Of a DNA stretch of 64,000 nt, positions 55,396 to 64,000 are shown in pieces. The position numbers and the translations under genes were made by a program. Each line of letters starts with the position of its first letter. The stretch's first letter is position 1. The DNA comes from an uncultured Spirochaetales bacterium (GTDB taxonomy: Bacteria; Spirochaetota; Spirochaetia; Sphaerochaetales; Sphaerochaetaceae). The notes below the pieces were generated by a model. The model was not told the origin of the DNA, ran no database searches, and saw only the letters and a program-made list of their open reading frames with translations. The stretch lies in contig CASFMA010000026.1 of NCBI GenBank assembly GCA_949295675.1, positions 9,898 to 73,897 on the forward strand, in the 5' to 3' direction.

Positions 55396-56949
55396 ATGGC
55401 GATAAAGAACCATGACTCTGTGATTGTTCTGGACTTCGGAGCTCAGTACAGCCAGCTTATAGCAAGGCGTGTGAGGGAGTGCGGCGTGTACAGCCAGATT
55501 GTCCCTTATACGATAGCTGCTGATGAAGTAAGGAAGATAGCTCCTAAGGGGATCATATTCTCCGGTGGACCTTCTAGCGTGAAGACTCCGGGGTCTCCAC
55601 GTCCTGATAAGGAGATATTCTCGCTTGGTATTCCGATCCTTGGCATATGCTATGGTCTTCAGGTCATGTCTGAGATGCTTGGTGGCAATGTCACATGTCC
55701 GGAGAAGAAGGAATATGGCCTCCAGAATATCGATATAGACGATAGGACATCCATGCTTCTGAAGGATGTGTCAGACCATAGCCAGGTATGGATGAGCCAT
55801 GGTGACAGCGTTGACAGGATTCCTGCTGGGTTCCGTGTCACAGCCTCGACTCCTACGTGTCCTTATACAGTGGTTGAGAACGATGAGAAAAAGTTCTATG
55901 GAGTCCAGTTCCATCCTGAGGTTGTCCATTCAGAAGAGGGCATGAATATCATCCGCTCATTCGTGCTTGATATCGCCAAAGCCAGTCCGGACTGGAATAT
56001 GGGATCATTCATAGATGATGCTGTTGAAGAAATCAGGCGCACTGTCGGCGACAGGCAGGTGCTGTGTGGCCTTTCGGGCGGTGTCGATTCATCTGTTGCC
56101 GCCCTCCTGATACACAAGGCTATTGGTGATCAGCTTGTATGTGTGTTCGTGAATAATGGGATGCTCAGGAAGAACGAGGCTGAGAATGTCATCAATCTTT
56201 TCACGAAGCATTTCAATATAAGGCTGAGATACGCAGATGCAGAGGACGCTTTCCTTGCTGCTCTAAAGGGCGTTACAGAGCCTGAGGCCAAGAGGAAGAT
56301 CATAGGCAAGGTCTTTGTCGATACTTTCTATGACGAGGCTCGTCAGTGCGGGGATATTTCATTCCTTGCCCAAGGGACGTTGTATCCGGATGTGATTGAA
56401 TCGAAGTCTCCGACAGGAGGGCCATCCTCCACGATAAAGTCCCATCATAACGTTGGCGGTTTGCCTGAGGATCTCAAATGGCAGCTGCTTGAGCCTCTTA
56501 AGGAACTCTTCAAGGATGAGGTACGGGCTCTTGGAAAGGAGCTTGGGCTCCCTGATGAGCTTGTATATCGCCATCCGTTCCCTGGCCCAGGCCTTGGCGT
56601 AAGGTGCATAGGCGAGGTTACGAAAGAACGCCTCGATACTCTCCGCGATGTCGATGCCATATTCATCGAGGAAATAAGGAAGGCAGGCCTTTATGATAAG
56701 ATCTGGCAGGCTCTTGCTGATCTTCTTCCTGTAAAGAGCGTAGGCGTGCAGGGCGATGAGAGGACTTATAGGGAGGTCTGTACGCTCCGTGCGGTCACTT
56801 CCGAGGATGCGATGACAGCTGATTGGTTCAGGATGCCTTATGACGTCCTGCAGAGAGCAGCTGCGCGTATATGCAATGAAGTCAAAGGTGTGAACCGTGT
56901 ACTCTATGACATCACATCTAAGCCACCTGCAACTATAGAGTGGGAATGA
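55396..56949 (+). CDS. guaA: GMP synthase (glutamine-hydrolysing)
   Basis: VLDFGAQYSQLIARRVRE, GICYGLQ, the PP-loop GLSGGVDSSV and the C-terminal IEWE. Confidence 0.97.
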   Translation: MAIKNHDSVIVLDFGAQYSQLIARRVRECGVYSQIVPYTIAADEVRKIAPKGIIFSGGPSSVKTPGSPRPDKEIFSLGIPILGICYGLQVMSEMLGGNVTCPEKKEYGLQNIDIDDRTSMLLKDVSDHSQVWMSHGDSVDRIPAGFRVTASTPTCPYTVVENDEKKFYGVQFHPEVVHSEEGMNIIRSFVLDIAKASPDWNMGSFIDDAVEEIRRTVGDRQVLCGLSGGVDSSVAALLIHKAIGDQLVCVFVNNGMLRKNEAENVINLFTKHFNIRLRYADAEDAFLAALKGVTEPEAKRKIIGKVFVDTFYDEARQCGDISFLAQGTLYPDVIESKSPTGGPSSTIKSHHNVGGLPEDLKWQLLEPLKELFKDEVRALGKELGLPDELVYRHPFPGPGLGVRCIGEVTKERLDTLRDVDAIFIEEIRKAGLYDKIWQALADLLPVKSVGVQGDERTYREVCTLRAVTSEDAMTADWFRMPYDVLQRAAARICNEVKGVNRVLYDITSKPPATIEWE

Positions 56950-57512
56950 TTGCATTTTATCTTTAATACGGGAAACCGTTGTAATACAATATCTTGTATT
57001 ATGACGATTTTTTGTCAGTTATCACTATTATTTGGGACATGATGGAGGCTGTGAAACAGGTATAGCTATCAGATGGAGATTGAAAAGAAGAATTATACAG
57101 AGGGCTATGAGAGAGCAAAGCCATTCTTCTCTGTATATGTGCTGAGGACCGTTTCATCATCCATGCCTCCGGAAAAGGTATTATCATTGTGCAAGAAGAG
57201 ATGGCACATACTATAACTACTTCTCCAATGAGGATTACTGCAATGTATTCTGCCTGAAAGAATATTACAGGATACTTCATACTCCTTGTCTTATTGATAA
57301 TACATAATGAATTCGCTCTTGAAGATAAAGGGAAATGGCTGTTCAGTATGCGATGCTCTCTGCAAGGAGATTGTGAAGATAATAAAATGGTGGAGGACAA
57401 TGGATCTGCACGAACACTAAAGGAAGCACCGAGGATCTCTTCAAGGTCCTCAATACTTCCCCTCCTTCAGGCTTTATTCCTGATTTTCAAAGTCACTGTG
57501 CTTAAATTTCAG

Positions 57513-57531
57513 TTGCACTCTTATAGTGCAA
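57513..57531. promoter_or_regulatory. Perfect inverted repeat TTGCACT-N5-AGTGCAA (candidate operator or hairpin)
   Basis: Read directly from the sequence. It lies in the AT-rich spacer ~100 bp upstream of the candidate promoter of the SPFH operon. Confidence 0.25.
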
Positions 57532-57605
57532 TCAGTTCCTCAATTTTGCAAGTGACGAAAAAAGCTTGATACTAGCTGCATTCTTTTCATGAAACTATAT
57601 TTTGT

Positions 57606-57633
57606 TTGCGGGTTTTCTTTTTGCATATATAAT
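57606..57633 (+). promoter_or_regulatory. Candidate promoter of the SPFH-led operon
   Basis: TTGCGG(57606-11)-N16-TATAAT(57628-33). The predicted transcription start near 57640 favours the ATG at 57661 over the ATG at 57649. Confidence 0.35.
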
Positions 57634-57660
57634 AAAAAGGAATAATTCATGGGGGTTTCA

Positions 57661-58839
57661 ATGGCTATAATCAATTTTGTTGAATGGCGTGATGCCGATC
57701 CTTCAGTTTTTGCTTGGAGATATCCGGAAACGAATCTTTCAATGGGAACCCAGGTTATTGTCAATGAATCCCAGGAAGCTGTGTTTTTCTCTAAAGGTGA
57801 GATTGCAGACAGACTGGGACCAGGTCGCCATACGCTCTCTTCTGCCAATATCCCTGGCATATGTAAACTTTGGGGTATTCCATTCGGAGGCAAGAATCCT
57901 TTCACAGCAGAGCTTTGGTTTGTAAATAAGCGAGCTCCTTTGAATATTGATTGGCACTGTTCAAAGATGATGGTATCTGACAGTAGATTCTCCGTTGTGC
58001 CGCTTGTAGCTAGCGGACGTTATGGTCTGAGAATTGAGAATTCAGAGCGATTTCTTGCCGAACTTGTCGGAAACGTAGAACGCTTTACATCTCCTCAGAT
58101 TACTGAGCATTTTTCTGGCATGATTGAGCAATATACCAAGAATGCGATTGTAAACTACATCTCTAATAATGGTGTTTCTGTAACTGAGATTACAGCCCGT
58201 CTTACAGAGATAGCTGATGCAGTAGGCAAGCAGATGACTCCTTTCTGGGCGAAATATGGGTTAGCAATCCCTGGCTTCTTCATCACAGATATAAGTATTG
58301 ATGAATCAGATTCAGTTGGAAGAAAGGTACTGGAAGCTATCGCATCTTCATCTGCTCAGAATATCGCTGGATATACATGGCTGCAGGAGCAGACGATGAA
58401 GATTGCCAATAATGCAGTCACAGGCCCAGGCGGAGATATGGGAATCCTTGGCATGGCTATGCTGACAGGAGCTTTCGGTGGAGGCATGAACGGCTTTGGT
58501 TCCCAGATGATGCAAGTACCTGGACAGAATCAGATGCCACAGAATCAAGGAGGGTTTCAGCCCCCCAGACAACAGGGGCGAAAAGTAGTCTATTGTTCAA
58601 ACTGCGGAAAGAGCTATCCAAGTACAAGCAAGTTCTGTCCAAACTGTGGTGACAAATATAATCCATGCCCTGTCTGCGGTGCTGACAACTCTGAAAATGC
58701 TAAGCGCTGTGTGAGCTGTGGCACAGCACTCGTAAATAAGAATGATGTTATGTCTGACTCTGGTTACATCTGCCCGTCATGCGGTGCTCCTGTAACACCT
58801 GGAACGAAGTTCTGTCCAAACTGTGGCAGTAAACTTTAA
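57661..58839 (+). CDS. SPFH/band-7 domain protein with a G/M/Q-rich linker and three C-terminal zinc ribbons (COG4260, B. subtilis YdjI-like)
   Basis: The N-terminus IINFVEWRDAD..VIVNESQEAVFFSKGEIADRLGPGRH resembles the YdjI family. Three CxxC-x10-CxxC units close the protein. An alternative start is the ATG at 57649. Confidence 0.75.
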   Translation: MAIINFVEWRDADPSVFAWRYPETNLSMGTQVIVNESQEAVFFSKGEIADRLGPGRHTLSSANIPGICKLWGIPFGGKNPFTAELWFVNKRAPLNIDWHCSKMMVSDSRFSVVPLVASGRYGLRIENSERFLAELVGNVERFTSPQITEHFSGMIEQYTKNAIVNYISNNGVSVTEITARLTEIADAVGKQMTPFWAKYGLAIPGFFITDISIDESDSVGRKVLEAIASSSAQNIAGYTWLQEQTMKIANNAVTGPGGDMGILGMAMLTGAFGGGMNGFGSQMMQVPGQNQMPQNQGGFQPPRQQGRKVVYCSNCGKSYPSTSKFCPNCGDKYNPCPVCGADNSENAKRCVSCGTALVNKNDVMSDSGYICPSCGAPVTPGTKFCPNCGSKL

Positions 58840-58850
58840 GGAAGTACATT

Positions 58851-59534
58851 ATGAAAACGAAATCGTTGAGGATTTATATATCTCTGATTGCTTTGATCAT
58901 TGTAGCAATCTATGTTCTTCTTTTTGTTGCTTTTGCTAAGACACCATATTCTTCTCAAAGTATCTTCTTCCTTGTCCTTATTCCATTTGAAATTGCAGTG
59001 AACTGGGCTTCTCTCTTCTTTACTGCTCGGTATAGGAATGATGAAGGTGTGATCACATCAATCATGCCAGTGCTTATTTCGCAGGTTCTCTATACAGTTC
59101 TTTCGCTTGTGATCGCATTCATTCTTGCTTTTTTCGGAGCATCTATGAAGACGCAGCTAGTAATCCAGGTTGCCATACTGCTCATCGGTGTAATCGGAAT
59201 CATGATTGCATTCTTCAGTGCTTCTGCTTCTAAGGAGAGTACAAAGGTTCAAATGGAGAATCTGCAAAGCGTTAAGGATATCAGAGCACAATTCAGAAAG
59301 ACTCTGGATGAGATGGAAGCTAAAGGGCTTGAGGGAGATAATTTCTCACTTCTTTCATCTCTCTATGATGATTATGCACATATTGCACCGTGTAATAAAG
59401 CAGAAGCAGCCGCACTCGATAAGCAGATTGCTGAGACGTTGACTGAAATATCGTCCCGCAAGGCAAGTGAGTGTGATGGCAGTATTTCTATGTTGCGTTT
59501 TCTTGTTAAACGTCGCTTGAGCATCAGAAGCTGA
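58851..59534 (+). CDS. Hypothetical 4-TM membrane protein with a helical cytoplasmic tail
   Basis: There are four hydrophobic segments in residues 1-125, then ~100 aa of charged, helix-like sequence. RBS is AAGGAAG, 11 nt after the upstream stop. I recognise no motif. Confidence 0.6.
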   Translation: MKTKSLRIYISLIALIIVAIYVLLFVAFAKTPYSSQSIFFLVLIPFEIAVNWASLFFTARYRNDEGVITSIMPVLISQVLYTVLSLVIAFILAFFGASMKTQLVIQVAILLIGVIGIMIAFFSASASKESTKVQMENLQSVKDIRAQFRKTLDEMEAKGLEGDNFSLLSSLYDDYAHIAPCNKAEAAALDKQIAETLTEISSRKASECDGSISMLRFLVKRRLSIRS

Positions 59535-59554
59535 GATATAGGGGAGGTTATGAA

Positions 59555-61555
59555 ATGCAAGGTAAGCTGTATCAGGACTCATCGAGCATATATGAGGACG
59601 AGGCAAGGATCCTTTTTGATTATTTTTCGCAGGCTGCTGATCGGATCATTGAGGAAGAGAATAAAGCAACGGCAAGGATTGAAGAGGCAAAGGACAGCCT
59701 GAACCGAGCGTTTCAGGATGGAAAAAAGAAGAAGATACGCAATATAATATTGTTTATTTTTGCACTTATTGGAGCTGCTTCTCTTTTCTATATCGGGGAG
59801 GCGAAGCCGTCATATATAGTTGCGGGCCTAGCTGTCATCTTCTTTTTCATGTTACTTTCGTCGATTTTCTCATCTAAGGCGAAAATAGCTGAAAAGAAAG
59901 CGAAAGTGAAAGAAAGCGAAGAGGCGTTCTCAGCAATCAGGCGGAACTATCGTGTTGATAAGCTTGGTGTTGCATATGTGCCAGTTGCCAAGAAGATACC
60001 GTTTGGCAGCCAGAGCATAACTGTAGATCTGAGTGGGGCTGTGCAAGATGAGAATTTCGAGCTTATTTCCATCAACGAGCCGGATAAATTCGAGAACGAT
60101 GTGAACGCATTCAAGAAAACACTCTCATCCGTGCCTCTTGTTGAGGGCTCTAGAATTGCAAGCAATGTCGATACTGCTGATTTCTCTCCTTCTATGCAGG
60201 AAGTTCCTATCTATGATTATCTATCATCTATAAGCAATGGAATCGGTACTATAGAAACAGACCTGAAGAATGTCGATAAGAAATCCGTATCGATTCCTGT
60301 TATCGTACCAGGCTCTGAGACGATGGACTTCCTTAGCAAATGCGGAACCACGGAGCCTGAGGATTATCCTGTTGTCAATGTTTTCGATTCAAGCTCTGTT
60401 GAACCTAAGCTGAGCGTGCTTCTCGATATTTACAACCAGAGAAAAAATACAAGCACAGGCGATGAGAAAGCTTTGGAGAATCTTATCTCGTTGATTGGTA
60501 TATCTGCACAGACAATAGTTGGGTCCAAGATGAACTGCTCTGCAGCAATTCTCGAGTACAATAATGGTATATTCGCTAATGTTTTGAAGAGTCCTTATCG
60601 CAATTACAGCCCTAAGCTTGAAGCTGAGACGATAGAGGAGATCAAGTCAATGAACTTCAATTTTGGCGATATGGCTGAGACATATAGGCCATTCAAGTTC
60701 AAGGAAAGCTCATTGATGAAGTTCGATCTCTATTCTGGTTCTTGGATTGATGAGACAGGAGGAAGAACATCGATGCCTTTCGGCTTGCACCAGATTCAGG
60801 AAGAGATCTTCATGCCTATCGTCAATAATCTAATGGAAGAGAATAGAATCGAGAGGCGCAAGATCTACGAGCGTATCCAGACACAGAAGCTGGAGTATCT
60901 GAACAAATGGCATACAGAGACACAAGATTTCTATGGCCGTAACAGAGATACATCTGATACGCTTAAGAGTAATATAATTGAAGCACTTTCTTCTTATAAT
61001 TCATCCTATGCGACATGGAAAGCTATCAAGGATACTATCAGCAAGATGGATGAGCAGCAGAGCCTTCTTGGTGGTAAGATTGAGAACGACAGTACAACGG
61101 CCTCTTCTATGATAATTGCTGCGGAGCAGGCCAATAATAACTTCAAAGCGCTTGAAGAAGAATTCGATGCTTATATGGAAAGATTGCAGGATGATATCGA
61201 CGAGAAGGCAGATAAGTTCGGTAGGGTAACTTATTATGAAGCGTATCTCTATGCTGCTGAGGCACAGAAAGCCGCAGTTGCTGCTGGAAATGTATCTTCG
61301 TTTGATTCCAGAAAGCTTAAACTGGCAAAAGCCAGTCCTTATCTTGCAGAGTATGGAACGCTTCCACCTCAGCCAAGTGTTGACGATGAAGTTTATGAAA
61401 TCATGGATAAGAATCTTGCATCTGAGGCATCCGACCTTCTTAATAAGCTTCATGAGGATGAAAGCAATGAAAGCGAAAATGTCGAAACAATAATGTTCAC
61501 TGATGAAGATGGAAATAGCGGAGCATACGATGCTCTAGATTCCGACAAGGAGTGA
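59555..61555 (+). CDS. Hypothetical 666-aa membrane protein (coiled-coil, a pair of TM segments, then a large unknown domain)
   Basis: RBS is GGGGAGG. The two TM segments are IILFIFALIGAASLFYIG and IVAGLAVIFFFMLLSSIF. About 530 aa follow, and I could not find a P-loop, nuclease, protease or other known signature in them. The C-terminal tail is acidic. Confidence 0.65.
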   Translation: MQGKLYQDSSSIYEDEARILFDYFSQAADRIIEEENKATARIEEAKDSLNRAFQDGKKKKIRNIILFIFALIGAASLFYIGEAKPSYIVAGLAVIFFFMLLSSIFSSKAKIAEKKAKVKESEEAFSAIRRNYRVDKLGVAYVPVAKKIPFGSQSITVDLSGAVQDENFELISINEPDKFENDVNAFKKTLSSVPLVEGSRIASNVDTADFSPSMQEVPIYDYLSSISNGIGTIETDLKNVDKKSVSIPVIVPGSETMDFLSKCGTTEPEDYPVVNVFDSSSVEPKLSVLLDIYNQRKNTSTGDEKALENLISLIGISAQTIVGSKMNCSAAILEYNNGIFANVLKSPYRNYSPKLEAETIEEIKSMNFNFGDMAETYRPFKFKESSLMKFDLYSGSWIDETGGRTSMPFGLHQIQEEIFMPIVNNLMEENRIERRKIYERIQTQKLEYLNKWHTETQDFYGRNRDTSDTLKSNIIEALSSYNSSYATWKAIKDTISKMDEQQSLLGGKIENDSTTASSMIIAAEQANNNFKALEEEFDAYMERLQDDIDEKADKFGRVTYYEAYLYAAEAQKAAVAAGNVSSFDSRKLKLAKASPYLAEYGTLPPQPSVDDEVYEIMDKNLASEASDLLNKLHEDESNESENVETIMFTDEDGNSGAYDALDSDKE

Positions 61556-61557
61556 TT

Positions 61558-62481
61558 ATGGCAAGTTTCACTGTTGATATAGGAACTGAACCCCTTGCTG
61601 AGCATGTTGATGTGATGACTTCATCAGTCCGTCAGGTTTCCTCATCTGTAGACACGATGTCCAATCGCCTTGTCGCAGCAGAGCAGATGGCAGCAGAGCG
61701 TGTTAGTATGAATGTCACTTATGGCTTTTACATGCTTACTCGCAATCAATTCATGCAGAAGGCTATAGCGCTGGAAAACGATGTTCTTATGACATTCTCA
61801 AAAATCCAGACTTATTCGGAGAATCTTAAAGAGATAAAAAGACGTATGGAGAAGGATTATGCTAATATATCGCGTCAGTATCTCAAGATCTTCTCGAATA
61901 TCGACGAAGCATTGAAGAACTCGATACGCGAGCTTGACCAGGGCCTTGTCGAGGTGGCTGTCGATGGAAGGCAAAAGCTAACGGAGAGACGGTTGGAGAA
62001 CTCAGTCAAAGTCATAGCTTATCCTGATGACATCCTTATGCTTTCGCAGACGATGGTGTCTGGAAAGCTCAAGAAAGAGGCTGAGGTTCTTCTTTCTCAT
62101 CTTTTTGCGCTTGTTGAAGCCCAGAAAAAGTTAGGTGGCAAGATGCAGGGAAGTCTCTCTTCAGAACAGATAGAGAACGATGAAACACTCTACTTCCCTG
62201 TTGTAATGATAGAGACAGAAAATCAGGATGAGGAAGGTAGCTATGTGTTGGAAATCAGGATGCCTAATTTCCCTGAAGCGATATCTACGCAGAGCGGCAG
62301 TGTCTATTCCCGTGTTGTAGAGCTTAAGGATGATGATATCTGGCAAAAAGGCAATAAGGCGAAGATGACATTGGTGAGAAGCGAATTCAATAAGCTTCTT
62401 TCATCACTTGATCCGCGTAAGAAAGAAATCATGCAGACTCTTTTTGAGTCTTCTGAATGGAAGGAGCTGAGAAAGGAATGA
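61558..62481 (+). CDS. Hypothetical protein, paralog 1 of a tandem pair
   Basis: The ATG at 61558 has an AAGGAG RBS lying in the upstream gene's last codons. A GTG at 61552 overlapping the upstream stop is an alternative start. The protein is helix-rich and paralogous to the next gene. Confidence 0.6.
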   Translation: MASFTVDIGTEPLAEHVDVMTSSVRQVSSSVDTMSNRLVAAEQMAAERVSMNVTYGFYMLTRNQFMQKAIALENDVLMTFSKIQTYSENLKEIKRRMEKDYANISRQYLKIFSNIDEALKNSIRELDQGLVEVAVDGRQKLTERRLENSVKVIAYPDDILMLSQTMVSGKLKKEAEVLLSHLFALVEAQKKLGGKMQGSLSSEQIENDETLYFPVVMIETENQDEEGSYVLEIRMPNFPEAISTQSGSVYSRVVELKDDDIWQKGNKAKMTLVRSEFNKLLSSLDPRKKEIMQTLFESSEWKELRKE

Positions 62482-63476
62482 GCTACTCTAGAACATTTCA
62501 TGGCAGTGTCAGCTTATCTGTCCATTACTCCTATCCAGCGAGTGAGCATGGGGGGAGCGGATCGAAGACTGTCACAGAGCCTATTACTATCACAGTAGTA
62601 GTCGATGATGCGCCATTCATACGTTCGGCTGCTGTTTGTACAGAGAGTATCGATGACGTGGCTTCAAGCCTTATCGAGGCGGCTAATCGCAATGAGAGCG
62701 CGAAGATTACTACTGCCGAAAAAATCAGCAGCAGTGTCATCAATGGCTTCTATAACTACACTAAAGCGGATTTTTCCCAGAAAATGGTGGAGCTTGAGAA
62801 TGAAGTTTCCGCAGCAGGCCCGAAGCTTCTGACTTACTTCGACCAGCTGAAAAGTATCAAGGAGAGGATGGAGAATGACTTCAATATGATAAAAAAACGC
62901 TATGTTGATATCTTCTCTTCCCTTGATGATGAGCTATATCGGGAAGTCTATAGGCTGTACAGCCCTTGTTTCGATCTTATCGATGACTGCTTCAATAAGC
63001 TGATTGTCTCAAGCAGCCTTTCATCTCTCTCTGAAGTCCTTGGATACAACGAGCTGACAGTGACTGAGAATGCTTTGCTGCTTTCATTCCTAAAGTTGAA
63101 GCTTTCAGGTGTGATGAAGTTACTTTCAAGGATAGCTGAAAACATAAAGCATCTGGATTCTGTTATCTCCGCTGTTTGCGAGAAAAAAAGTGCTGATGAT
63201 ACCATAACGCTTTATGTCCCTGCTATTTTCTTCCAGCGTGAAATGTTGACCGGTGGGAATTCTGAGATAGTCACATATGCACCATCCATCGCTTCGGATG
63301 AAGCACAGAAGAAAATCATGGAGAGTGTCCAGCTCTCAGCTTCTTCGTTCCAGGCAAAACCTCGCGAGATGGATCTTGTTGAAATGAAATTCCAGGAGAT
63401 GATGGCTGGTATGGAAAGTGCTGAGAAGCGAAAGAAGATGATGGCTCTATGGCAGTCTTACAAAGGAGGTAATTGA
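62478..63476 (+). CDS. Hypothetical protein, paralog 2 of a tandem pair
   Basis: The start overlaps the upstream stop as ATGA, preceded by AAGGAG/GAAAGGA. It shares blocks with paralog 1, for example INGFYNYTKADFSQKMVELENEV versus TYGFYMLTRNQFMQKAIALENDV. Confidence 0.6.
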   Translation: MSYSRTFHGSVSLSVHYSYPASEHGGSGSKTVTEPITITVVVDDAPFIRSAAVCTESIDDVASSLIEAANRNESAKITTAEKISSSVINGFYNYTKADFSQKMVELENEVSAAGPKLLTYFDQLKSIKERMENDFNMIKKRYVDIFSSLDDELYREVYRLYSPCFDLIDDCFNKLIVSSSLSSLSEVLGYNELTVTENALLLSFLKLKLSGVMKLLSRIAENIKHLDSVISAVCEKKSADDTITLYVPAIFFQREMLTGGNSEIVTYAPSIASDEAQKKIMESVQLSASSFQAKPREMDLVEMKFQEMMAGMESAEKRKKMMALWQSYKGGN

Positions 63477-64000
63477 TGATTTCAGAGAAGAATATGGAAG
63501 AAATAAGAGTAGATAGCAAGGATCTGATCCTGAAAGACAATAAAGTAAGCTCAGGTATTATCCCGCAGACATCTGCGCAGCTCAAACGTTCCATTGTCAT
63601 TGAAGGCAATGTTGATATTCTTGGCGCTGTTTATGGAGAGAAGGTTCTTGTCCACGATGGGCCATGCTCTTTCCATCGCTCTGTCTTCGGAAAAGAAGAG
63701 CTTGTCATCGATCCGACTAGCAAAGGTTCAATCATCTTCCATGAATCAGCTGGATCGAATCATGTTGTTTCTTCTGCTTCTCTTTCAGGAGAAGTCATAT
63801 TTGCTTCGGATATCAATGCAAAGAGAGTAACTCTACGCAATGCGTTTGTCGGAGGTTGTGTATATGCTGATGAGATCAAGCTAGATAACTCTGTTGTAAT
63901 CGGTGGTGCTTTTGCTTCCAAGAAGCTTGAGATAAATCATTCTGTCATAGGTACTTTCAACAGTCAGGAAGTCGTACTTGAGGGGAGGAATTATCTAATT
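63476..64000 (+). CDS. Bactofilin-like beta-helical repeat protein (3' end truncated by the window edge; not in the ORF track)
   Basis: My own translation from the ATG at 63476 (AAAGGAGG RBS, TGATG overlap) is open for 175 codons to the window end. It reads MISEKNMEEIRVDSKD..SIVIEGNVDILGAVYGEKVLV..RVTLRNAFVGGCVYADEIKLDNSVVIGGAFASKKLEINHSVIGTF, with repeated short hydrophobic/Gly beta-strand units. Confidence 0.55.
   Translation, partial: MISEKNMEEIRVDSKDLILKDNKVSSGIIPQTSAQLKRSIVIEGNVDILGAVYGEKVLVHDGPCSFHRSVFGKEELVIDPTSKGSIIFHESAGSNHVVSSASLSGEVIFASDINAKRVTLRNAFVGGCVYADEIKLDNSVVIGGAFASKKLEINHSVIGTFNSQEVVLEGRNYLI

Follow-up and report, generated by a model that had tools for sequence, protein, structure and literature searches.

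A six-gene cassette in an uncultured Spirochaetales bacterium joins a YdjI/SamI-type SPFH protein to five protein families without known relatives and probably encodes a membrane-associated machine

YdjI, encoded by the pspA-ydjGHI (pspA-samGHI) operon of Bacillus subtilis, has a band-7 plus zinc ribbon architecture and needs the membrane partners YdjG/H to recruit PspA (PMC8581546; PMC11237479; bioRxiv 10.64898/2026.02.06.704340). This cytosolic protein, YdjI/SamI, is itself recruited by YdjG/H, keeps PspA foci stable, and forms a complex that senses membrane stress (PMC8581546; bioRxiv 10.64898/2026.02.06.704340). Proteins of the band-7 type are found repeatedly in phage shock protein (PSP)-type contexts, and the Lia/PSP Toastrack modules (LiaG, LiaF, YvlB), which combine transmembrane (TM) anchors with a coiled-coil protein and a sub-membrane protein of beta-helical type, have been proposed to form a stress-signaling platform (PMC11237479). 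The locus described here is a cassette of six genes, A to F, at the end of a 64,000-nucleotide (nt) stretch of contig CASFMA010000026.1 (positions 9,898 to 73,897; GenBank assembly GCA_949295675.1) from an uncultured Spirochaetales bacterium of the family Sphaerochaetaceae; this whole stretch is called the window. The cassette probably encodes an undescribed membrane-associated cellular machine. A preliminary description, made by a model from the sequence alone, had offered two roles, a membrane-integrity or envelope-remodeling module and a membrane-acting, abortive-infection-type phage defense island. It had also stated that only A has a characterized relative, which agrees with the searches reported below: A is of the YdjI/SamI type, and no family was found for B to F.

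The six genes lie consecutively on the plus strand after guaA and its terminator, as seen in the open reading frame (ORF) listing and by direct reading (Table 1). Genes A and B are separated by 11 nt, B and C by 20 nt, and C and D by 2 nt. The E start lies on the D stop in an ATGA overlap, the F start lies on the E stop in a TGATG overlap, and an AAGGAGG sequence precedes the F start. Translational coupling joins the genes from C to F. One operon of at least six genes, with C to F tightly coupled, had been proposed beforehand; the gaps, overlaps, and conserved gene order bear out the single operon and the coupling, and the gene number is now fixed. A metagenome scaffold (L092) that is 100% identical to window positions 60988-61986 and 61997-64000 extends past the window edge and so provides the continuation beyond position 64000 that the preliminary description had proposed to obtain. 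On this scaffold F has its full length of 328 amino acids (aa) and ends at window-equivalent position 64462, some 460 nt past the edge. The cassette also terminates with a 328-aa F in two relatives, L002 (97 to 98% identical) and L003 (80% identical), and the operon therefore consists of exactly six genes.

The same gene set recurs far beyond this genome. A scan of one genome per species (185,579 genomes, two search patterns) found relatives of C in at least 265 species genomes. Gene order and phyla were taken from the best 80 loci, the phyla by record labels. The hosts are Spirochaetota, Bacteroidota, Firmicutes (Butyrivibrio, Lachnospiraceae, Oscillospiraceae), Actinobacteriota (Olsenella, Atopobiaceae, Coriobacteriaceae), Cloacimonetes, Desulfovibrionaceae, and Deferribacteraceae, about seven phyla in total. 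Labels of metagenome-assembled genomes can be wrong, but the loci span a wide range of GC, which speaks for a real diversity of hosts. Of the 64 informative loci, 60 have gene A on the upstream side of C, and the downstream side is occupied by F in 62 of 62, with recurring sizes of ∼390 to 460 aa for A, ∼235 to 245 for B, 630 to 830 for C, ∼300 to 330 for D, ∼335 to 370 for E, and ∼322 to 340 for F. The window matches this co-linear A-B-C-D-E-F pattern, C-type signature protein included. Across phyla, the proteins have median identities to their window counterparts of 48% for A, 42% for F, 36% for C, 28% for E, and 27% for D; B falls below tblastn detection. A variant in Bacteroides cellulosilyticus/timonensis (L006/L007/L008, L074, L079, L081) has neither A nor B and carries a 591-aa Sel1-repeat protein directly upstream of C. 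A further locus, L033, is without A, and C to F are therefore the invariant core. A hidden Markov model search of 1.84 billion cluster representatives returned 384 matches, ∼20 of them full-length clusters at 50% identity; the family is rare yet widely spread. The complete six-gene set is present in Bacteroidales bacterium CF (AGY54589-AGY54594) and the C-F core in B. cellulosilyticus DSM 14838, and the D and F homolog clusters of the Bacteroides variant each occur on 1000 or more metagenome contigs. In metagenomes of the human gut the cassette is very common. Among the outcomes that the preliminary description had named as undoing its proposal were a gene set confined to this genome and a composition like that of core genes in a locus conserved in all relatives; the set spans phyla, and the composition differs from that of the flanking core genes.

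All six genes are real and under strong purifying selection. Measured against L010 (Candidatus Ornithospirochaeta stercoripullorum, 90% DNA identity), dN/dS (the ratio of nonsynonymous to synonymous substitution rates) is 0.079 for B, 0.059 for C, 0.044 for D, 0.055 for E, and 0.009 for F, with dS values of 0.37 to 0.60. L003 served as the reference for A and gave a ratio of 0.023.

Protein A is an SPFH protein. Its residues 23 to 220 match Band_7_1 (PF13421) with 136.3 bits against a gathering cutoff of 24 (E = 1.5e-39), and homologs from other phyla likewise exceed this cutoff. It also matches Zn_Ribbon_1 three times and DZR, the three ribbons being built from six CxxC pairs, and it has no TM segment by hydropathy. 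The SPFH domain, the C-terminal zinc ribbons, and the lack of a TM segment together are the features of a YdjI/SamI-type protein. A is 35 to 52% identical in 63 loci across phyla, and source annotations call it "SPFH domain-containing" or "putative virion core protein." A PDB sequence-profile search with A gave no meaningful match. As in pspA-samGHI, a cytosolic protein of this kind is encoded beside genes for integral membrane proteins that could recruit it, and the whole module is membrane associated and nonenzymatic. Unlike YdjG and YdjH, however, B and C give no zinc ribbon, NTF2-like, or TPM match, and the B. subtilis operon has nothing that corresponds to C, D, E, and F.

Hydropathy gave four hydrophobic segments in B, followed by a cytoplasmic helical tail of ∼100 aa, in line with the first reading of B as a 4-TM protein with a helical tail. 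An ORF of this size and architecture lies between A and C in most A-bearing loci. Relatives of B keep an RYLSP...A..LE motif and a terminal RK motif and are otherwise too diverged for tblastn. Searches of Pfam, NCBIfam, PADLOC, PHROGs, and PDB sequences with B found no match; stray matches of B to LeoBC, and of the zinc ribbon of A to DrmA, were judged to be noise. An SPFH gene followed closely by a small multi-TM gene is also the arrangement of the SPFH-partner operons (HflK/C-FtsH, QmcA-YbbJ, YqiK-YqiJ, and flotillin-NfeD). NfeD proteins end in a beta-barrel domain. In contrast to those operons, B has its helical tail and no NfeD match in Pfam or NCBIfam, A has no membrane anchor of its own, and the cassette contains four extra conserved genes.

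Protein C consists of an N-terminal helix, a TM hairpin (residues 63-81 and 88-106), a cytoplasmic domain of ∼530 aa, and an acidic disordered tail of 30 residues. The hairpin has a 6-residue outer loop and Lys-rich flanks, which place both termini of the protein in the cytoplasm. In the AlphaFold model (mean predicted local distance difference test [pLDDT] score, 76; predicted template modeling [pTM] score, 0.40), the large domain is predicted to form an alpha/beta region and a long helical hairpin. Foldseek comparison of this model with PDB and BFVD gave coiled-coil noise only, and nothing was found in Pfam, NCBIfam, PADLOC, PHROGs, or PDB sequence profiles. The earlier reading, which saw no P-loop, nuclease, protease, or other known signature in the large domain, holds across sequence libraries and structure search alike. 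More than 327 homologs of C were collected, every one annotated as hypothetical; B, D, and E carry the same label in their source annotations. A distant sister group of C-like proteins (P0253, P0265, P0280, P0283, P0285, and P0295; 550 to 600 aa; E = 1e-19 to 1e-28 against the C profile) also has no Pfam domain.

Proteins D and E are tandem paralogs, as had been noticed by eye; profile comparison with hhalign gave a probability of 100% and an E value of 3e-56 over 303 columns. Compared with D, E has a strand-rich N-terminal extension of ∼35 aa. The AlphaFold model of D (pLDDT, 73; pTM, 0.26) has one helix at residues 11 to 152, a second at residues 159 to 200, and a small C-terminal alpha/beta unit. 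The two are ancient paralogs in which very long helices predominate. Neither protein has a hydrophobic segment by hydropathy or a significant match in Pfam, NCBIfam, PADLOC, PHROGs, or PDB sequences, and the D model matched nothing in PDB at E < 1 with Foldseek. Several stray results were set aside as noise, namely, phrog_15273 (E = 0.0016) and EspC for D, syntaxin for E, and the coiled coils of the colicin R domain, PI3K iSH2, JetA, and tape-measure proteins in the Foldseek output for the C and D models. A PspA-like identity for D and E was rejected as well, the D profile giving an hhalign probability of 0.2% against Escherichia coli PspA. The partial B. cellulosilyticus GuaA P0331 that falls in the 90% cluster of a D homolog is an unrelated sequence and a clustering artifact, with no link to guaA.

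Protein F contains a region of ∼130 residues of short strand repeats, in which a periodicity of 16 to 17 residues is weak, and a conserved C-terminal domain of ∼150 aa with an invariant D253 and N262-H263-F264. It is 37 to 46% identical across phyla. Its homologs are annotated as hypothetical, save for one labeled "CcmA (bactofilin family)." F had been called bactofilin-like. The repeat region and weak matches speak for that name: sub-threshold Bactofilin matches were seen in 6 of 19 F relatives (best E = 1.1e-4), along with weak matches to left-handed beta-helices. Every Bactofilin (PF04519) score nevertheless stays below the Pfam cutoff of 27.9 bits, at 16.2 bits for the window fragment of F and 14.1 bits for the full-length L002 protein. 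The likeness to bactofilins (BacA/CcmA) is therefore confined to the short-strand repeat region and to matches below threshold, and we know of no bactofilin that carries a conserved C-terminal domain of the type seen in F. No significant match to F was found in Pfam, NCBIfam, PADLOC, PHROGs, or PDB sequence profiles. The cassette has a parts list analogous to that of the Lia/PSP Toastrack modules; unlike in those modules, F has no Toastrack/DUF4097 match, and neither a two-component system nor a transcription factor accompanies the cassette.

Zinc ribbons of the type found in A are not confined to A. The same type stands at the C terminus of F proteins of 450 to 520 aa in three Actinobacteria-labeled loci (L045:7773-9131, L053:14022-15581, and L058:13912-15348), and one C homolog (P0169) has a zinc ribbon at its N terminus. 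These fusions suggest that the ribbon is a docking module that can be moved among the proteins of one complex. No enzymatic domain was detected in any of the six proteins with Pfam, NCBIfam, PADLOC, and PHROGs, and we found no description of the cassette in the literature. The preliminary description could name no system that combines these parts; sequence libraries are indeed empty for B to F, as is Foldseek for C and D. Judged by these comparisons, the cassette appears to be new, with one of its six components in a described family and no known system sharing its architecture.

B, with its four TM segments, and C, with its TM hairpin, are the membrane anchors of the cassette; the other four proteins lack TM segments. 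Our preferred reading, by analogy to PspA-SamGHI and with a probability of roughly 40%, is that the six proteins would form an enzyme-free scaffold under the inner membrane for membrane surveillance or stabilization. Membrane integrity seems to us the better of the two roles suggested at the outset. A could form an SPFH ring or cage and attach to B much as cytosolic SamI docks on SamG/SamH, while C would anchor a coiled-coil heterodimer of D and E, together with an F polymer, as a lattice below the membrane. Zinc ribbons may serve as portable docking modules inside this complex. The assembly would sense or stabilize a perturbed membrane and would be a functional analogue of the PspA-SamGHI and Lia modules built from unrelated parts.

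Several points weigh against such a scaffold. Unlike pspA-samGHI, the cassette has no PspA/ESCRT-III component, no match to PspA_IM30 or Snf7 being found at E ≤ 1, and it contains no regulator. F fails the bactofilin threshold. The family is rare, with about 265 of 185,579 species and ∼20 clusters, which is odd for a general envelope function, and in the present genome the cassette occupies a low-GC island. The quaternary arrangements are guesses, given pTM values of 0.26 for the D model and 0.40 for the C model.

The second role suggested at the outset, a membrane-acting abortive-infection system, would have the sub-membrane lattice detect membrane or injection events brought about by phage, with B and/or C then permeabilizing the membrane. 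We consider this possible but unlikely; it is the chief rival of the scaffold. A patchy distribution across many phyla with strict synteny would suit it. Kiwa (4-TM KwaA plus KwaB) and Zorya likewise combine a small multi-TM protein with soluble partners and are patchily distributed. Unlike them, the cassette has no PADLOC match, no motor, nuclease, or DNA-binding domain, and no defense island around it. Among the 5027 models of PADLOC-DB v2.0.0, C, D, E, and F matched none, and the best results for A and B (E = 0.002 to 0.003) fell on zinc ribbon and TM segments. Weak SLATT-like matches on the TM regions (B to SLATT_1, E = 0.35; C to SLATT_4, E = 0.36) could be read in favor of such a system, but they are far below the cutoffs and not significant. 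The usual sensor or effector domains, such as NTPases and nucleases, are missing, and the dN/dS values of D and E (0.04 to 0.06) give no sign of an arms race.

Gene neighborhoods bear on the same question. The two nearest ORFs on each side were taken in about 55 loci, giving 218 proteins that are reported as raw counts. These neighbors fall into 133 + 134 different Pfam families, and none is conserved. Most are housekeeping proteins such as TsaD, adenylosuccinate lyase, UvrD, transporters, methyl-accepting chemotaxis proteins, and superoxide dismutase. Defense or mobile-type proteins comprise one AbiLi, one type I S subunit, one to two MADS, three integrases, and two PIN proteins, and ambiguous UvrD- and DEDDh-type PADLOC matches also occur in the flanks; defense-type genes amount to about 5% or fewer of the neighbors. 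The Bacteroides variant favors a defense role: in three of its loci (L006-L008) an AbiLi-type AAA_21 ATPase follows the cassette (PADLOC E = 1e-82), two of them having RloB and two a tyrosine integrase. No relative of C occurs in 72,556 plasmids, 50,697 phage genomes, or IMG/VR, so the idea of a phage- or plasmid-borne element was rejected; the cassette is an autonomous module that is not carried by known mobile elements. These heterogeneous housekeeping flanks, the absence from mobile collections, and a GC content that tracks the host leave the phage defense island of the preliminary description unsupported.

The GC content was evaluated against the 44 other window ORFs of at least 150 aa, which have a GC of 0.512 ± 0.014 and a third-position GC (GC3) of 0.575 ± 0.033 (minimum, 0.507). 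The six cassette genes have a GC of 0.406 to 0.453 and a GC3 of 0.368 to 0.489, so the drop of about 10 points relative to core genes that had been estimated by eye was correct. The low-GC stretch, ∼8.9 kb in all, spans the cassette and a 320-aa ORF behind it (GC 0.38) and stops at transporter genes. An island that includes one further orphan ORF, and an upstream context that differs in the 80%-identical relative, would both be in keeping with abortive infection. However, the cassette GC follows that of the flanks in 53 other loci (range, 0.32 to 0.67; mean difference, -0.011), so the low GC belongs to this genome and not to the family. Host-tracking GC in most genomes fits a long-resident cellular function. 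The window cassette has a GC of about 0.43, resembling its closest relatives L003 and L010 (0.45, with flanks of 0.46 to 0.48), and this resemblance suggests a fairly recent transfer from a related spirochete into this higher-GC genome. At the island ends, no att-like repeat of at least 12 nt, direct or inverted, was found.

The surroundings of the cassette differ among the closest spirochetes. A V-type ATPase operon adjoins it downstream in L003 (12745-17995) and L010 (7914-10987) and upstream in L009 (5712-8006), whereas in the window the cassette stands between guaA and an ABC (ATP-binding cassette) transporter, which indicates that the upstream context was rearranged within the clade. On L092, F is followed by an inverted repeat, a 325-nt gap, the plus-strand 320-aa ORF (L092:3881-4843; window equivalent, about 64788-65750), and then ABC transporter genes on the opposite strand. 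The 320-aa orphan occurs also at L002:7825-8145, is missing from this position in L010 and L003, and matches nothing in Pfam or PDB. Its sequence includes a NANDGGIDFVLRP motif, which we take to resemble the catalytic motif of Mrr-type restriction endonucleases.

A cytoskeletal landmark is a less likely explanation than the scaffold for membrane surveillance or stabilization, and we regard it as distinctly doubtful. F would polymerize like a bactofilin and D/E would form coiled-coil filaments, and together they would hold some envelope or cellular machinery at a place on the membrane marked by A, B, and C. The sub-threshold Bactofilin matches among F relatives, the one homolog named CcmA, the long helices that dominate D, the lack of enzymes, and the housekeeping neighbors are all compatible with this. 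The Pfam cutoff that F does not reach and the rarity of the family argue otherwise, as does the lack of any client enzyme or cell wall gene conserved beside the cassette; moreover, the hosts include spirochetes, rods, and cocci and share no single morphology.

A membrane tether for translation, in which the acidic tail of C would act like the ribosomal stalk and capture translational GTPases or ribosomes, is improbable. The idea comes from two very divergent C homologs that end in a ribosomal L7/L12 C-terminal domain beyond a long acidic linker. The Pfam matches are to P0062 (L094:1077-3542; E = 1.1e-14) and P0167 (E = 1.3e-17), with a weak one in L039:10001-12349; the P0062 locus is otherwise in normal gene order. 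An L12 domain employed outside the ribosome could point to a connection with translation GTPases or to a binding module on a tether, and the window C has the acidic tail. But the fusion occurs in only two to three family members, the window C has no L12 domain, the L12 C-terminal domain may be a generic protein-binding module, and no further translation gene accompanies the cassette. That D and E are exported components of a ClyA/Mak/Ahl-type alpha-pore-forming toxin acting on other cells is highly improbable: tandem paralogs of ∼300 aa with long helices and then a small beta unit, a very weak NCBIfam match to MakE (E = 0.093), and AhlB in the Foldseek noise for C (E = 1.6) are outweighed by the empty comparison of the D model with PDB, AhlB entry included, by the absence of a hydrophobic head or tongue in D and E, and by the absence of a secretion signal or a linked secretion system.

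The starts of the cassette genes were assigned from relatives. Gene A has two candidate starts, ATG 57649 (396 aa) and the second ATG at the position in Table 1 (392 aa, MAIINF...); the second is most likely the start, since L003 and L009 keep only that ATG and the gene as called in L002 encodes 392 aa. The C-D junction had been given as a 2-nt gap or, with a GTG start, a GTGA overlap. The gap stands and the GTG start (61552) does not, because the family consensus of D opens with MAxFxFxVDT, as does the window protein (MASFTV) when read from ATG 61558. E opens with MSYSRT, in line with the family consensus MSYxxxY. Upstream, the assignment of guaA rests on the earlier call and on the ORF translation read against the genuine GuaA fragment P0331. 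The terminator-like hairpin behind guaA separates that gene from the cassette transcript. The final ∼70 nt of the spacer before A are shared with the relatives L002 and L003 and contain a -10-like TATAAT (57628-57633), which may function as a promoter. Rfam searches of the spacer and cassette matched no family. A 133-aa ORF with a TTG start on the minus strand of the spacer (56999-57400) went uncalled on L001, a contig of identical sequence, and is probably spurious.

Table 1. Window coordinates of the six cassette genes and of the features upstream of them
Feature	Position	Strand	Length, composition, or basis
guaA (GMP synthase), upstream core gene outside the cassette	55396..56949	+	517-aa ORF, GC 0.502, GC3 0.529
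Terminator-like hairpin (13 pairs) and T-run closing guaA	56977..57015	+	Consensus scan
AT-rich spacer, GC 0.369	56950..57660	.	Composition, alignment with L002 and L003
Gene A, SPFH (Band_7_1), G/M/Q-rich linker, and three zinc ribbons	57661..58839	+	392 aa
Gene B, 4-TM inner-membrane protein with helical tail	58851..59534	+	227 aa
Gene C, TM-hairpin signature protein	59555..61555	+	666 aa
Gene D, soluble long-helix protein	61558..62481	+	307 aa
Gene E, D paralog	62478..63476	+	332 aa
Gene F, beta-helix-like repeat region	63476..64000 (window edge)	+	First 175 of 328 codons in window

A broader proposal is put forward tentatively. The cassette may represent a new kind of prokaryotic sub-membrane machine, made of an SPFH cage, two anchors, a coiled-coil pair, and a bactofilin-like polymer, that is enzyme-free, horizontally spread, and physical in its output. 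Its hosts would be mostly host-associated or anaerobic, and the output would be membrane sealing or gating or the capture of cytoplasmic machinery. In the boldest version, the acidic tail of C, L7/L12-ended in some lineages, would be a membrane-bound ribosomal-stalk decoy that sequesters translation GTPases upon stress or infection.

Five families without relatives, held co-linear with an SPFH protein over about seven phyla, are the signature of an undescribed multiprotein machine. SPFH proteins are universal, while their bacterial partners and mechanisms are poorly understood, and the six-part context offers a handle on the function of YdjI/SamI-type SPFH proteins. Carriage of the cassette by cultured organisms, by organisms with complete genomes, and in human gut metagenomes makes genetics and cryo-electron tomography feasible. 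If the cassette is an immune system, it would be of an enzyme-free kind, and if it serves in membrane repair, that repair would be of a kind independent of ESCRT-III.

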